Origin: Saccostrea echinata
Taxonomy: Eukaryota
Length of the DNA stretch: 64,000 nucleotides
Assembly (NCBI RefSeq): GCF_033153115.1
Contig: NW_026889761.1
Location: forward strand, 18,042,001 to 18,106,000
Reading direction: 5' to 3'
In this document: positions 14,689 through 49,952 of the stretch, piece by piece
How positions within the stretch are numbered: position 1 is the stretch's first letter
Layout: every line of letters begins with the position of its first letter
Program-made: the position numbers and the translations under genes
Notes under the pieces: generated by a model
The model's input: only the letters and a program-made list of their open reading frames with translations
Told to the model about the DNA's origin: nothing
The model's database searches: none

Positions 14689-15521
14689 TAGGTTGTTCCA
14701 GAATTGCTAATGCGAATTAACGGTAAAGTTTACACTATATGGAGAGAATGAACTTGTTTGTTACAATCCGGGATTGGGTCTAGTTCACGTTCATCCTGGT
14801 GAAGTCATTTAGTTTGTTAATACCATTAGGGCGGAATGACTTCAGCCTTTGCATCCAGAACTTTTCCTTGCCTTTTCTCAGAGCGTCTGTCCATCTTGGA
14901 TTATGGTCAATAACTACTACTGTCATGTCCTCCCATGTGTGACCTTCAAGGTTGAAATGTTCCCCAACGAGTTCATTGAGTTTTTTGGTCCTAATAGTAG
15001 AACGGTGATTATTGACTCTCCTGCGGAGATCTCCTGTTTCACCAACATACTGTTTGGAGCAAACTTTGCAACTAACGAGATAAAAAATATAATAGTAAAA
15101 ATTAATTCAAGAAAAATTTATCAAAATCTCTAGGCTAGAAATAATTAGACTCGGCCTCGATCGTTAATTTAAAATTAAGGAAAATACGCAATACTATATC
15201 AAAAACTATTACAGAGCAATATGTGACAGACTCATGTTTTTATATATTATACACATGTGCATGGCAATGCATATTGCATGTGCATTTATTAATTGATCTA
15301 ATTATGTATATATTTTTATTTACAGCACACTATTACTAACAGCTGAATCATATAATTATTCATTTAATCTGTAGTAGAGTGTATTGACTTTTAAATTGTT
15401 CTTTTCCAGAGAAGTCCAGAGTTAGCCTCAGGGCTGTAATTATATTCTGGCCAAGGTCATTTTGTATCTTTTAATTTCATTGTTTTTTTTTTTAGTTTGT
15501 CTTATGCTTTTGGATTGGGTT

Positions 15522-21300: not shown

Positions 21301-22108
21301 TTTGATCTTTGGTTCTTCTTTGATACATGTAATATGTTTTGTTTCATTAAATGATTACATTATAATAAACACCAAATGCAAAGTATATGAATAAGTAGTT
21401 AGAATAATCTAACTTTGTCTCGGGACAGGCCCTCACCGGGTCTGTAGGACATTTAACATTTTGAATATTTTTAAAGAGAATAAGGAATGGACTCTCAAAT
21501 CAATGTTCAAGGATGAATTTTTTACCCATTGGTAACATTTAAAAGAATGGTTGTAAAAAATTTTAATTGTAGTGCAACTGGAGAGAGAGGTGGCAGAGAC
21601 AAAGAGGGAGGTGGAGGAGACTCGTCACGAGATGGAGGAGACTCGTCATGAGATGGAGGAGACTCTGAGGGTGGTGGAGGAAACCACACAGGAAGTGATG
21701 GAATCCCAACAGAAGGTCTCGTCACTCAGAGAGAGGCTGCAGCAGAAGGAGAGGATCATCCTACAGAAGGATCAAGTCTTACAACAGAAGGATCAAGTCT
21801 TACAACAGAAAGACAGACTCCTTGATCAGGAGAGACAGAGGAACAGAATCCTGGAGGAGAGAAGTCATCAGCTCTCTGAGGGGAAGTGGCAGAGGAGGGT
21901 GTGTGAGTTGGAGGAGGAAATCTGTCGACTGTCCGCCCAGTCTGACCGCGCCAAGTGTAAGATCTGTCATGTGAAGGAAGTCCAGGTGTTCTTTACTTCC
22001 TGTAATCACCTGGTCTCCTGTCAGGGATGTGTGGACAGTCTGCCAGAGAAAGTGTGTCCTTTGTGTAGGACACCCATTAAAGGAACAGTCACAATGTTCT
22101 TTGCATAG
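18348..22108 (+). CDS. IAP-type RING E3 ubiquitin ligase without BIR domains (N-terminal hydrophobic segments, helical middle, coiled coil, C3HC4 RING), about 466 aa
   Basis: Phase-1 exons 18348-18957, 20637-20840, 21127-21177, 21573-22108; the C-terminal CKICHVKEVQVFFTSCNHLVSCQGCVDSLPEKVCPLCRTPIKGTVTMFFA is an IAP/XIAP-type RING. Probable non-coding first exon ends at 17638 (AG|GTAAGG); an acceptor lies immediately before the ATG. Confidence 0.85.
19338..19953. mobile_element. Crypton-like non-autonomous element (terminal hairpin plus IR-bounded body)
   Basis: About 145-bp near-perfect hairpin 19340-19485, then a body bounded by ttatact...agtataa; no TSD seen. Confidence 0.65.
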
Positions 22109-25100: not shown

Positions 25101-26348
25101 TCTGTCTTATTTCATTTGAGATGAAATTAATTTTCAAATTCTTCTATGTATACTCTCCCTGTTCTATTTTGTTCTGTATTCATAAATTTTTAAAGCTTGT
25201 TTTTAGAAGAATAAAAATGACATCAAATTTAGGTTTGAAATTTACTATCTTCTCTCTCTCTCTCTCTCTCAAATCTTGTCCTGTAAATTTTAGCTAAAAT
25301 ATGAATTGTATATAAATTTTATAAATTAGTTGAGTTATTTTTATAATAGAAGTACTAGTGATGCAATAAAAAATGTGCATAAAATGCAAGAAAACTTGAC
25401 GTGCATTTTTTTCTTTATACTGATCAAATTTAACAAGAGTTTTGCTCTTGAGAAATACCTGAGGGTGGTCCTGTTGTGTACCTACAAGTAGCTGTCCATC
25501 CGTCAAATCACTCATTTGACTTTACCTACAAGTTTGCTCCAATTTTGATGGAACTTTGCATAAAGAACAAGAAGATTACATCAACATACCCAATTCCTCA
25601 CATTATGATTGAACAGGGTTTGCACTGTTAATTAAAAATAAACTCTTTTGAAATGCATCTACATCAGGTACATGTCCTCAACGCAAGGGGCCCTGGGTCC
25701 ACTGTTGACGCGGGGCCCGGGGTCCCATGTCCGTAAGTGGACTCGCGACTCCTGACGTTGAGAGGAAGTAGTTAGAACCCGACGTATTTTAGTGCTAGAT
25801 ATACACTTTTCCAAGAGACAGATAAAATTTCCAATATTATTTCCAAATTATGTTTATTGCTTTGATTCGTTTATTAATTTGACAGAAATTTCTTTAGATG
25901 AACTTTTTAAAATCATGATACAATGATGCGTTCATTTTATTACCTATGTTTAAAATTTACATAATTATACATGTTTAAGTTAATCAGCTAGAATACGATG
26001 TGTCTTTAGATTAACAACCACAGAATAGGAACTGGGTGTGATATACATGTACATTTAAAAAGAACTAATCATGTCAAATTTACCAACTATGTACGACGTT
26101 TCTTTTCTAAGTAAAGTAAACTGCAGGTTAAATTCTCAAACCTTTTTTTTTTTGTATAATGACGACAATATATTGTTTTAACTTTAATGTGGTAATTTGT
26201 TCTGTATCTCATAAAACGTTTTTCTGTAATTTTTTTGTTCAAGATGGTTTGTGGCATGATTGAAAATATTAAACGTCAATTTACAAATATGTTCACACTT
26301 GGAACTAGGTGGCAAAGTAACTTAATAGGCTGCACATCAAAAACTCAC

Positions 26349-29318
26349 TCCCACGCTGGAAGCTCCCGCCTTTACCGTATCTAGGATACCGCTACCTTCC
26401 TCCTAAAAGAAAAGAAAAGTAAAACTGTAGGTTCTCTAACTTATTCTGTATAATGATGACATAAATTGTTTTAGCTTTAATACAGTAATTTGTTCTGTAT
26501 CAGTATCACCTACAAGCTAGGTTATTCTGTAAGTTTTCTTTTCAAGATCGTTTGTGACGATGAATGAAAACATTGAACGCCAAGGAGATGGGCGAACATA
26601 GCGTGCAGAAAGCCTATAGCTTCAGAAATATAAAAATCATGTTCAGTTTGTGAATTTAATATTTAGAGTAAAGTTCTCATTATTGAAATTTATGTAACTG
26701 TGATAAACAAAACTTTTCTGAGGAAAAATTTCTCGGCAAAATTTATTTTATTAAAAAAATTAATGTGGTATTCGTGGGGTTCGAACCCTAAGCAATAAAA
26801 ATCCTGAGAATCATTTTCTTTCGAGACTAGCACGCTAACCACTAGACTACACAAGTCCTGACGAACAGTGGCATTTAAATCATGTTTGTGATATGACCCT
26901 TGACTTAATGGACTTCAAGTATTTCTCGAAAAGATGCGAATGTTATGTCATAAAATTATATTTTTAAGGTATAGTGGGTCTTTGCTCCATATTTTTGGTA
27001 AGCAAAAAATGTATATTTTTATGCAAACTTTGAGGATTAACTTTCAAAAAGGTGGAGCGAAGACCCACTCATATCGAAAAACAGTGTTATAGTATGCGAA
27101 AATGACTCTTTTTGCCCTCTTTAGTGTGTGTCTAATATTTCACAAGCAAATAATTTCAAACTTTGAGGGATTTTTGCAAATTGTAGAGATTTTACATAAA
27201 GTATATTTTAATGTTAGACGAAATATCAAGGAAAATTTTGATATAATAGAAATTTAATTTTTCATCTTCATGTTTGTCACACTGTGGGCTTATCGCTCGT
27301 CATGTTCACCCATCTCCTTTACAAATACCGTTATTATCAAACTGTGAACTAGACGACAAAGTAACTTTGAATAGACTGAACATCAAAAACTTACTTCCGC
27401 GCTGGAAGCTCCCGCCTTTATCGTATCCAGGATACCGCCACCTTCTTCCTTTGGTTCCTCTTCCTTCGGTTCCTCTTTGGGTTCTTCCTCTTTTGGTTCT
27501 TCTTTGGGTGGTTCCGGTGCTTCTTCTACAGCTTCTTGGACCTCTTCACAAGGAGAGGGCTCTTCAAATTCAACAATGTCGTCCTCAAGTGTTTTGCCTT
27601 TCTGAATACCCTCAAACTTGGCTGTTGGTTTCTGCTCCTCTGCAACTGTTTCCTCCGACGATCCTGCGTCTTCCTTTGTAGAATCCTCTTTCTTTTCCTC
27701 TGAGCCCTCGTCTTTTGTCTCTTCGGAACCTTCTCCTTTCTCTTCGGAACCTTCCCCTTTCTCATCGGATGATTCTCCTTTCTCTTCCGCTGACTTTTCG
27801 TCTGTTGGTTCTGTTTTCTCTTCCGATGACGTCACAACTGCTTTGTCAGATGGCTTGGGAATAGGATCGTAAATTCGTATATGTGCGTACTCATCCCCGA
27901 CTTTAACCTTATAAATGTAAAATGATTTGTTATTAAGTATGTTTCAAATTATAATTTGATCAATAAAGTTTATAGTACTTGTTGATACTTTGCTTCCGAT
28001 GCTAGCAAATGAAACTACGATTAATTTAAAACTTTTATAGAACTGCTTCTAGAGGTGAACTAAATTAAGGAGCACGAAAGGTCAAAATCAACAAAGAATT
28101 AGAATCATCGATCAATATACGAGTACTATATCAAAAGAAATAGTGAACTATATTAAGAAAAACTCAACAACTCAGTTAAGTTAAAAAGAAGAAAAATTTC
28201 CAATTCAATATGTATGATCGATGTACAGTAATTTCGTATTTGCATCCTCTATGATTTAGGATACAAATACGATTTGGGGAGGATGACATCCTCTTGCTAC
28301 AGTTCATACTAGGAAGCGTGTATTGTCAGGCGGAACCTCTGTCCAAGTAAAGCAAGAAGGAATTGTGAAGTTAATTCATGAACACGAAAAATTATATATT
28401 CTAGAGATCCGTTAGTCCGAAATATCTGACGTTTTCCAGGCTTTTTTCACGTAAAATATTAAATCGTAAAAAAAAAAGCTATTTCGGACTAGAGATCCGT
28501 ATAAAACGTTCTTTCGATAATGACCCAAACACCGTCATTTCGAGGATACAAAGAAAGCACTTTCATGGCAGTTCACCCATTGAAGAAAATAAGATCCCTC
28601 AAATTCCATATAGGAAAGACAATATTTAATTTTAGTGATAAAGTACAAGAGGCTTTCAATTCATAATGCATACTCCCAAACATCGTAGCAAACCACGGCC
28701 AAAATGTACGATCCTCTCCCATGCTAGGAGAGAGCTATATGCGGACTCCGGACCATGGCTTGAGACGATGACTCCCAAAGAAAATTATCAATACTAGTAC
28801 ATGTATGTGTTAAAAAAAAATACTCTCTCTATATAAACTGGATTTATCTTTTCTTAATTTTCCCCCTGAAATGAATCGTTGTAGGCCGTAAAACATACCT
28901 TAATGAAATATAAATTTGCTGCAACGACTTGTTTCCTGAAAGAGACGGCTTCAAAGGTATCCAGTTCTGTTCCAAATTCTTTTTCCACGTCAGCTTTAAA
29001 CTACAATAAAAGAATAAAGTCTATGCTCAAATCATAATAAAGTACGCACATGCACATAGACGAACTTTTAGATAAATGTATAGTTTAAATTTGTGTAGCA
29101 AACAGGATAACGCTGACGTGAATATACATGTATCAAATGATAAAAAAAATTATTTTAAGTATAATTGGTATTGCAGATATTTGTTTCTACAGATAGCACT
29201 TCTTTAACACATAATGAAATACCTTTTCAGCCAGAGCTTTGACTTCCTCGTTTGGTACATTTGTCTGGGAGAGTTCCCCAGTAGTTGGTTCCTGGTTCTT
29301 AGATTTGTTGCAACCCAT
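26349..29318 (-). CDS. Divergent stefin/cystatin-like protein with N-terminal myristoylation motif and Glu/Lys-rich C-terminal extension (3' end uncertain)
   Basis: Phase-0 exons 29318-29223 (MGCNKSK...VKALAEK), 29000-28899 (FKADVEKEFGTELDTFEAVSFRKQVVAANLYFIK, same 102-nt size as stefin exon 2), 27907-27395 (VKVGDEYAHIRIYDPIPK plus acidic tail), 26402-26349; possible last exon 26106-26080 (KRNVVHSW*). Confidence 0.85.
26770..26852 (-). repeat. tRNA-derived (SINE-head-like) sequence
   Basis: Minus strand has an A-box (tagtctagtggttag) and a B-box (gggttcgaacccc) but no complete cloverleaf. Confidence 0.5.
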
Positions 29319-30204
29319 TTTGAAGTTAAATTTCCTGAAACATAAAATACCGATATAAGAAAGATTAATATTCCTTGGCACCAAATTGTGAGCTGATTTG
29401 AATAATATCCCAAACATCCAGACTTACTTGAATTTCCTACAAAGCAGCGACGAAATTCAGAGAAGTTTGGGCTGAGAAACCAATGTGGCACCTGAGGATG
29501 CTGTGTAGACAATGACTTTGGAATCCTCCTCTCTCCTATACAAACATGTCGGACATCCGTCATTGTTCAGGACCTGACCAGGTTGACGTATCAGTGTTAT
29601 AATGTACGGAACATTCAATGTCCGCATACGACACCGAATTTATGTGTATTCATTGTACTATCCCTCATACATTGAACGTTGAACATCCTATTGGAGATCG
29701 ACCGCGGTGAACGATTTGTAGTGAAAACTGGGTGTTTGTAAAAAGAAAATAAAAAAAATCATAGCTTTAAATCTTCATCTTTAAGTTGTTATTTAGTTTG
29801 ATCTGAGGAACTTTTAAATGCATGTATTCTATATATTTTTAAAGAATATCCATTATTCACTGTATGTTCAGAAAAAAATTCTGAATCCATATCACCCAGA
29901 GTATCATCACAAGTCTTTGGGTGGTTGATTTAATATGTATACATGTATCATCAGTTTCATTTTTTCTAAGATCCTCTAATAAGATTTATTATTATGGTAA
30001 TGTGCTCGGTACAATACTCACACTACAGATTCAGAAATTAGACATGTTTTCATCCAAGAAGGAATTAAAACAGAAGCCGACAGCGTGTAAATTTTAAATG
30101 TGAGTAGACATGGACACTACAAGGGGTCGTCAGAACTGGACTAAATTTAGGCTGAAAATGGGTAGAAATGAATTTCGCACCTAAGTTGATTCTAAAAACC
30201 CCAC

Positions 30205-47957: not shown

Positions 47958-48668
47958 TTCCTCATGTCTTGTACGTCTGGACATTGTAAATATAGGTTAA
48001 TATTTGGACAAATATTACGATGATATTCATGGAAGAGTTATAGAATAGGATTTATTACCAAATCAGGGCCCAAGTGGGCATAAAAATATAACATACATAA
48101 TATATATATAATTACAGATATAGTAATGGACACCATACAGTGAAGGATAATTCTTTCAATTAGTATATTGGTGGCATTTTTAAGTTTCATATGTAGACAT
48201 GTATGTACATTATTACGAAATTTAAGCAGGTTTGTTAAAAGATGTGTATCCTAAATCTTATCAGATTCCTTAACAGGAGAAATAAAAGGTCTGAGACCTT
48301 TTGTGTGTGTATCTGTGATACGTAATAAATTATTTTTATCACTAATGAGTTATCTTGTGTATTGTACAATACAGTGTAGTATCAAGGTTAAAGGAGCACA
48401 CATTTAGACGCCCACATGGTGTATACATTTTAAATCACTTGCTTTTAAAAACCACAATGAATACGAGAGATCTATTTTTATAGTGTAGAAGGGAGTGTAC
48501 ATGTGCTTTTATTTAATAATAAGGAGAGTTTCCGGTGTTGTTTAAATACAACTATCGATAGATGAGCACGAGTGAACTCGATGAATAAAAATATAAACAA
48601 CGCATTGGAAAGTCTATAAAAATCACTCATTTGATAGATGTTTTCACATTATTGTATGACATTGTGGT

Positions 48669-49952
48669 ATGGATGGATGTTGCTATATATCTTGTTCCAA
48701 TAAGGACATTTATTTTGCTAATGGAATAAAGGACCATTTGAGGAATGGGCACTATGACGTCATCATTTCAAGTAACACATGTCTACAATTTCATTACCAA
48801 ACTTCGAGAGGTCAGATTCTTGACAGTAAATTTTTTATCGCCATAGTAACATCCGAGTTTATTAATCAACAAATCCACTTGTATGAATTGGCCCTAGCTT
48901 TGGATCTTGGGAAGAAGACTGTCATTATACAACATGAACTGGCTCGGATCCCGGACCCTTTTCCAGAACTACAATCAATTCAGTGGAACGATGATGTGAC
49001 CATTTTGTCGGAAAATGTGTGTCATGTACTTCAAGACCCGGTATACGGTAAATAAAACAGAAGCAGAATAGAACATTTATATACATGTTATACTTTTGTT
49101 TTTTTTAACTTAATGTAGTTTATGTACGAACGAAACGCAACATTAAATTATCTCTTATCATTTACATTAATTTCTGATTCTATGTTAAGTTTCACCCATT
49201 TCATAAAGAAGTCGCATACTTCAAGAAGTGGAATGCACAATTCACTAATTTTTAAGAAAGGTTTAATTGATGAAAATATTCTTGGGAGGAAAAACAGTGA
49301 ATATGAAAAAATAAATGTAAAATCTATTTTATGTTTTAAAAAAAATGGAGTCTATGTCCATTTAATAAATGAAAATCGAACATTTCTCAAAATAAATTCA
49401 TAGTGGTAAATGCGTTTATCATTACGCCTTAACGCGAGCTTTGGAGAGAGTACGAATCATTTTTGAGACTCTTTTTATTCCACACACCTTTAAACATAAC
49501 TTTTGAGGTGTGTAGAATAAAAAGATAAATTATTTATCAATAAGTAATTCAATGAAATAAGATAATGAACTGTATAAAAGGTGATATTACAACACAATTT
49601 TTGAGAAATGTAACTTCTGTTGAGAGATACATTTATGTAAATTGTTTCATCCTCGCCTTGTATTCACCTGGTATTAAAATTCATGAACATGAGTCCCTTT
49701 TAATGATCTTTTACTGATCATATGATATAATGTCGTCAAATGAATATTATGTTATAAATTTCCTTCATAATAATGACATAAGTTTTTTTTCTGTCTGTTG
49801 ACAACTGAATTGGATGTCGCTCCTAGTTATCGATTTTGTTCTAATTTCAGAGTTTCCGGTGTATATCGATTCCCTTGATGGTGACGCCTTTAAGCGGTAC
49901 ATCTGGAAGTTTGAGGAAACCCAGATAGCGAAACAGCTGTCTCCACACGTAT

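Follow-up and report, generated by a model that had tools for sequence, protein, structure and literature searches.

Does the second stefin-like gene in this stretch of oyster DNA still encode a cysteine-protease inhibitor, or has the stefin fold been put to another use? The window, by which we mean the whole 64,000-nucleotide stretch of Saccostrea echinata contig NW_026889761.1 analysed here (assembly GCF_033153115.1, positions 18,042,001 to 18,106,000), contains two stefin-like genes: a canonical one encoding 97 amino acids at 8600-9738 on the plus strand, and a paralogue on the minus strand with its ATG at 29318. The spliced translation of the paralogue is 258 amino acids long and identical to the S. 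echinata RefSeq protein (P0001) named 'kinX'; RefSeq already predicts the gene, under a wrong name. We find that the paralogue is real, spliced and conserved across four oyster lineages, that its stefin C-terminus is kept after a 74-residue acidic block, and that this block is an insert in binding loop 2. We hold it about evenly balanced that this oyster-wide stefin duplicate, with its likely myristoylated N-terminus, acidic loop-2 insert and acidic tail, serves as a scaffold tethered to a membrane and inhibits papain-family proteases weakly or not at all.

Gene structure and transcription

The original prediction, made from the DNA alone, was of a minus-strand stefin paralogue that opens with MGCNKSK at 29318, shares its intron positions with the canonical stefin, carries QVVAA instead of QVVAG and contains the segment HIRIYDPIPK and the repeats EEKGEGS and EEPKE. 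Each of these elements is present, with QVVAA at 28931-28917 and HIRIYDPIPK at 27883-27854. The stefin ancestry is borne out by the sequence, by a match to Pfam PF00031 above cut-off, and by the two phase-0 introns, both of which fall in the same aligned columns as those of the canonical gene at 8600-9738 (+). The canonical protein itself is identical to the cystatin-B-like protein of Ostrea edulis at 77 of 97 residues. The two genes are laid out as follows.

8600..9738, plus strand: canonical stefin (cystatin B-like), three exons, 97 amino acids; tail to tail with the paralogue
29428..29642, minus strand: non-coding first exon of the paralogue, in the 5′ untranslated region (UTR), with a provisional start; spliced contig in 1/4 runs
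29427-29335, minus strand: 5′ UTR intron, GT..AG; spliced contig in 1/4 runs
29223..29334, minus strand: exon with the ATG at 29318, residues 1-32; N-terminal extension, trunk Gly14, first strand, start of the helix
29295..29318, minus strand: MGCNKSKN, predicted N-myristoylation signal (Gly2, Ser6, Lys7) with optional palmitoylation (Cys3), from orthologue conservation
28899..29000, minus strand: exon, residues 33-66; loop 1 (QVVAA)
27395..27907, minus strand: exon, residues 67-237; strands 3-4, loop-2 insert, last strand, acidic tail, C-terminal motif copy 1
27632..27853, minus strand: acidic Ser/Glu/Lys/Gly insert in binding loop 2, 74 amino acids, residues 85-158, net charge -19, predicted disordered
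27566..27631, minus strand: retained last stefin strand and stefin C-terminal motif, residues 159-180; position-specific scoring matrix (PSSM), AlphaFold, fold search
27443..27565, minus strand: Glu/Pro/Lys tail, 41 amino acids, residues 181-221, net charge -15
26337..26402, minus strand: coding part of the last exon; C-terminal motif copy 2, end VGVSF, stop TGA; joint in 4/4 runs
25861..26336, minus strand: 3′ UTR, including 26080; poly(A)-type hexamers at 26188, 25941 and 25875; continuous contigs
26109..27450, no strand assigned: tandem duplication that doubles the C-terminal motif, with a repeat-like stretch within the new intron

Transcript evidence comes from contigs of four public runs, representing at most three samples and two studies; no matching run is recorded as RNA in the run listing. 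Because the contigs carry GT-AG joints, they derive from spliced RNA, and the gene is thus transcribed and spliced. The joint between exons 3 and 4 is found in all four runs and that between exons 2 and 3 in three, while exons 1 and 2 are joined in two runs (of one study) and the 5′ UTR intron is removed in one. The last exon begins at 26402 and runs on without a further joint, one contig reaching 25861. Since the contigs continue past 26401 in this way, the stop codon is the one at 26339-26337, and 26080, where the gene had been proposed to end, lies in the 3′ UTR. An alternative last exon ending at 26080 (KRNVVHSW) has an AG and an open frame, but no joint to it occurs in the four runs, and read-through to a stop at the end of exon 3 is ruled out by the exon 3-4 joint in all four. 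Among 40 differences between contigs and window that were shown (100 more exist), four are coding, three of them synonymous and one a Val to Leu change; none of the 12 indels shown (14 more exist) falls in coding sequence.

The start codon also stands, in that an in-frame stop precedes the ATG by 16 codons in the spliced leader, and Gly2 would therefore be N-terminal. The 5′ leader (29428-29642) contains several upstream ATGs, and one out-of-frame open reading frame (ORF) overlaps the start codon.

At the other end of the gene, the arms of the tandem duplication are 27337-27450 against 26293-26404 (85%) and 26412-26583 against 26109-26279 (75%). The C-terminal motif of 16-21 amino acids accordingly occurs as two copies in Saccostrea proteins only and as one in Ostrea, Magallana and C. 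virginica. The repeat-like stretch inside the new intron, at about 26580-27330, attracts many unrelated contigs.

An oyster-wide family

Orthologues are found in other bivalves, namely S. cucullata (three proteins), O. edulis, Magallana gigas, Magallana angulata and C. virginica, together with further transcript contigs, and all are open frames free of stops and frameshifts. The M. gigas gene is LOC109619240 and the C. virginica gene LOC111105080. They are filed in databases as kinX, TonB-like, CFAP251-like and Ycf2, names for which a Pfam scan gives no domain support. No orthologue outside the true oysters appears among 13 matches (7987 best candidates scored) or among the best 150 of 662 matches to a profile searched against 1.84 billion representatives. 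These best 150 comprise 147 new proteins, which are ordinary or multi-domain cystatins plus four fragments of the paralogue gene, and none of the 147 has an acidic block (at least 13 acidic residues in 30). Two mudskipper proteins, P0022 and P0023, carry 5-12 tandem stefin-like domains and are named uncharacterized.

The stefin domain of the paralogue is 72% identical to that of the O. edulis orthologue over residues 14-84 and 77% over residues 159-180, close to the 79% of the canonical stefin pair, which argues that the fold is kept under selection. A quick tree built from 79 rows of the domain without its insert unites the nine family proteins (Shimodaira-Hasegawa approximate likelihood ratio test 99) on a long stem (0.91) with short inner branches, the pattern expected of a burst of change followed by constraint. 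One S. cucullata copy, P0005, nests within Saccostrea on a longer branch, so its short loop is a secondary loss. We further note that P0003 and P0005 of S. cucullata share a 189-kb contig. P0005 is a young tandem copy; the loop-2 insert, the Cys3/Ser6 register and the loop-1 Gln are gone from it and the acidic tail remains, which makes it a natural deletion control. The accessions of the canonical stefin and the paralogue in O. edulis are four apart (XP_056013774 and XP_056013778), which suggests conserved linkage of the two genes.

The acidic block lies within a retained stefin fold

The stefin C-terminus had been thought to be replaced by an acidic tail. This does not hold. The last strand and the stefin end are still present as residues 159-180 (27631-27566), downstream of the larger acidic block. 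The latter is therefore an insert in loop 2, a placement on which PSSM, AlphaFold and fold search concur. The acidic sequence thus forms two blocks, the 74-residue insert that starts after PIPK (residue 84) and the 41-residue tail, followed by the short conserved C-terminal motif. On a stefin-end profile built from the last 19 columns of 69 control stefins, residues 159-180 outscore all 500 shuffles in eight of the nine family members, and in the remaining one they outscore 499. P0005, which is almost without the insert, aligns unbroken to solved stefins including the last strand, and its best PDB sequence matches are stefins.

The AlphaFold model places strands at residues 16-19, 48-57, 60-69, 72-81 and 163-171 and a helix at 24-41, and so predicts a complete cystatin fold of one helix on a five-stranded sheet. 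The predicted local distance difference test score (pLDDT) is about 83 for the last strand and below about 50 for the insert and tail. Against CsStefin-1 (5zc1) the model aligns 99 of 101 residues over model range 9-180 (Z 13.9, root-mean-square deviation (rmsd) 2.6), and against stefin B it reaches a TM of 0.88 by target in a 165-column gapped alignment. The Atlas's own model likewise aligns residues 10-180 to the cystatin domain. Insert length differs among the proteins, and identity to the orthologous inserts is 36-54%.

The terminal Phe is kept in all four oyster lineages, and the terminal hydrophobic-x-Phe might be read as a PDZ-type ligand. Two other readings of the C-terminal motif were set aside. 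It gives no score on the stefin-end profile as a degenerate second stefin end, and as an amphipathic helix its hydrophobic moment (0.25-0.42) exceeds 95% of shuffles in only one of eight copies, nor is it predicted helical. A search of the Atlas by features gave no usable match for the whole protein or the tail, and the structural rows for the tail were uninformative.

The protease-binding edge

Stefins inhibit through a three-part wedge of trunk, QxVxG loop and second loop (PMC2784779, PMC7863939). Three conserved residues in the region of this edge are lost in the oyster family. The QxVxG glycine, present in 69 of 69 ordinary stefins, remains in one of nine family proteins (A, A, A, G, A, Q, L, Q, E); trunk G5, a Gly in 61/69 controls, is Glu in 9/9; and N52, present in 62/69, is Leu or Val in 9/9. 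Loop 2 has 7-11 residues in the 67 scorable controls of the 69 and 50-92 in eight of the nine family proteins, with 84 in the S. echinata paralogue. Read at the level of sequence, the protease-binding edge is remodelled, and the comparative evidence leans to lost or altered inhibition. Our literature search found no paper on mutants of the QxVxG glycine.

The N-terminal anchor

MGxxxS/T is the consensus for N-myristoylation, and MGCNKSK fits it (PMC4736023). Gly2, Ser6 and Lys7 are invariant in all seven aligned orthologues, whereas Cys3 is not; this alignment was made without P0002, which has all three residues, and P0005, which does not. Cys3 is present in Saccostrea, Ostrea and Magallana and is Ala in C. 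virginica (MGAKKSK), which has lysines instead. Among 143 unrelated cystatin-type matches in the best 150 of 662, one has MGxxxS/T and none has MGxxx[S/T]K. Because the invariant residues fit the consensus and Cys3 varies, Gly2 is likely myristoylated and palmitoylation of Cys3 would be optional. The lipid anchor originally proposed is thereby retained in its myristoyl part, on grounds of sequence and conservation, and becomes optional as regards the palmitoyl cysteine, which C. virginica lacks.

What the paralogue may do

As a membrane-tethered scaffold, one of the two roles originally proposed, the paralogue would have arisen from a stefin gene duplicate that gained a myristoylated N-terminus, a long acidic loop-2 insert and an acidic tail. 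Met1 would be removed and Gly2 myristoylated, with Cys3 palmitoylation or the nearby lysines acting as a second membrane signal, and the protein would sit on the cytosolic face of a membrane. Because the trunk and loops 1 and 2 share one edge and the anchor lies 12 residues before the trunk glycine, the binding edge would face the bilayer, where the insert would crowd it. The folded stefin domain may then serve as a stable hub and the two acidic regions as spacers or as cation- or partner-binding regions in which charge matters more than sequence, while the conserved C-terminal motif ending in Phe could be a docking site for a partner.

Several observations weigh against this reading. G14 and V58, the equivalents of stefin A G4 and V48, are kept in nine of nine family proteins, as is the hydrophobic-Pro at the start of loop 2; Q56 and A59 are kept in eight of nine; and the O. 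edulis orthologue has an intact QxVxG. The contact positions named for stefin A, G4, V48 and residue 73, are largely kept in the family; engineered scaffolds needed mutations there to lose cathepsin binding (PMC2851446). The insert, moreover, starts just past the loop-2 contact residues and could swing away. Acylation and membrane location are inferred from sequence and conservation, and run X2 covers exons 3-4 deeply and exon 1 not at all (at 90% likeness), so that an alternative 5′ end is possible in that species. The AlphaFold model is based on an 8-row alignment and has a mean pLDDT of 57.9, and the single-sequence model of the C. virginica orthologue is low in confidence, with the last strand not placed. 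The tree is a quick-search tree in which 44 of 76 inner branches, deeper forks included, are open, and it gives no support for a sister relation to the canonical neighbour. Finally, the nine family rows amount to about four independent lineages, and the 69 controls were picked by similarity to the family.

A second explanation, the other role originally proposed, is that the protein is a tethered cysteine-protease inhibitor at the lysosome, phagosome or plasma membrane, where it would catch leaking cathepsins or pathogen proteases while the acidic regions tune specificity or gate access. We consider this possible, though doubtful. Oyster lineages retain G14, Q56, V58, A59 and the hydrophobic-Pro of loop 2, QxVxG is intact in O. 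edulis, the fold is predicted to be complete, and stefin inhibition covers a wide range of affinities (PMC7863939). On the other hand, the QxVxG glycine position tolerates A, Q, L or E, all nine proteins have other residues at G5 and N52, loop 2 holds 40-80 extra charged residues, and the contact residues that are kept may be merely structural. N-terminally elongated stefin B reportedly inhibits cathepsin H less well, to go by the title of a study, which also counts against an inhibitor with an extended N-terminus.

An unlikely further explanation is that this acylated acidic protein is exported without a signal peptide, in vesicles or in the manner of HASPB, and acts outside the cell, for example in shell or mucus, its acidic blocks binding calcium. 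The protein has a net charge of -40, N-terminal acylation drives the non-classical export of Leishmania HASPB (PMC3491706), and a paper on the C. gigas nacre matrix often mentions cystatins (PMC3361287). However, the supplements of two larval proteomes, which do list cystatin-A, yielded none of the M. gigas accessions, a weak test given that the accession systems differ. Acidic shell proteins are also mostly Asp-rich, whereas the blocks of the paralogue are Glu-rich.

About as improbable is a gated form of the inhibitor. Here the lipid anchor would keep a stefin that can still inhibit at the cytosolic side of lysosomes or phagosomes, and the insert would mask the edge until it is collapsed or opened by calcium, leaking acid or a proteolytic cut. 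If true, such gating would be a new way of regulating a cystatin-fold inhibitor, and natural proof that loop 2 of a stefin accepts 80-residue payloads.

That the gene is merely a decaying or neutral duplicate, its repeats grown by slippage and without special function, would suit the variable insert and tail lengths and the young copy P0005, which lost insert and acylation motif and has a longer branch, but is very hard to credit when four lineages preserve an open frame, the N-terminal motif, the residues of the fold and the final Phe, with a rate of change similar to that of the canonical stefin, and when the coding differences shown are three synonymous changes and one Val to Leu with no coding indel among 12 shown.

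Neighbouring genes

A third gene of the stefin type is found elsewhere on the contig, near 12.347 Mb; its loop 1 reads QLVNG and its loop 2 is short. Between the two stefin genes of the window is an ORF for a coiled coil and RING finger (21557-22108, +), and a GIY-YIG endonuclease fragment is found at 14780-15106 (-). The window also holds an exon of a CCDC81-like gene (Pfam HU-CCDC81_euk_2; 1492-1848, -), a retroelement remnant with reverse transcriptase (53600-56098, +), and exons for TIR, Death and CARD domains at 48660-49055 and 58085-58726 (+), which are possibly parts of one innate-immune adaptor or receptor gene.

Comparison with known systems

Our literature search found no paper on the paralogue protein, although subscription literature and supplements may hold more, and the excerpted text of a study of oyster haemolymph reports only a cystatin B-like protein (PMC11480171). 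The paralogue is real, conserved and apparently undescribed, and its range is narrow.

The nearest known system is the stefins, or type 1 cystatins (MEROPS I25A; human stefin B 1stf and 4n6v, CsStefin-1 5zc1 and the neighbouring oyster gene). The paralogue shares with them the predicted fold and two intron positions, the trunk glycine, a loop-1 Q-x-V-A and a stefin-type C-terminal motif. As in stefins, its N-terminus is hydrophilic, without a signal peptide, and there is no disulfide pattern; its only two cysteines, at 3 and 186, both lie beyond the folded domain. Stefins have about 98 amino acids, in contrast to 258 in the paralogue, which adds an N-terminal acylation motif, a 74-residue loop-2 insert and about 78 residues past the stefin end and has lost the QxVxG glycine, G5 and N52. 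It departs from stefins in two defining features, QxVxG and the short loop 2 and size, and we file it, judging by sequence, as a stefin-derived variant and not as a canonical inhibitor.

Stefins are seen as small, soluble, conserved inhibitors, and diversification is credited to the secreted cystatin lineage (PMC2784779). In the non-inhibitory cystatin-fold families of vertebrates (CRES, fetuin, HRG, cathelicidin, latexin, spp24) the fold is kept while the inhibitory motifs erode, as in the paralogue, and inhibition has been lost by mutation (PMC2784779). Families of the CRES and fetuin type, however, come from the secreted lineage, whereas the oyster paralogue comes from the intracellular stefin lineage, which the same paper calls more conserved (PMC2784779). 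The paralogue, oyster-wide and concealed by wrong database names, combines a likely lipid anchor with a remodelled binding edge and offers a simple test case for the tethering or repurposing of a stefin. It also comes as a natural series, with QxVxG intact in Ostrea and degenerate in Magallana and the insert lost in one S. cucullata copy.

In architecture alone, the paralogue resembles BASP1 and GAP-43, which combine N-terminal fatty acylation with long acidic disordered regions; those proteins are wholly disordered and have a basic calmodulin-binding effector domain (PMC7494789), whereas the paralogue has a predicted folded stefin core. None of six segments measured in the paralogue has a net charge above +1, as a basic effector-type region would. 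MARCKS is grouped with BASP1 and GAP-43, and the Pfam scan shows no homology of the paralogue to BASP1 or GAP-43. Leishmania HASPB has an acylated N-terminus and is hydrophilic and without a signal peptide, as is predicted for the paralogue (PMC3491706), but no homology between them is seen.

Engineered stefin A scaffolds (STM, SQM, SQT; PDB 6qb2) are a parallel for the insert, since they too carry a foreign peptide in loop 2 of the stefin fold. SQT-1C is the second-best structural match of the model (Z 13.8, rmsd 1.7, 87 aligned). The scaffolds have neutralising changes at G4 and V48, positions that are kept in the oyster family. Engineered loop-2 inserts above about 17-20 amino acids often harmed structure or yield (PMC2851446), whereas the inserts of the oyster family are natural and about 40-80 amino acids long, and the family thus provides an example of the very long loop-2 inserts that scaffold engineers have found hard to achieve.

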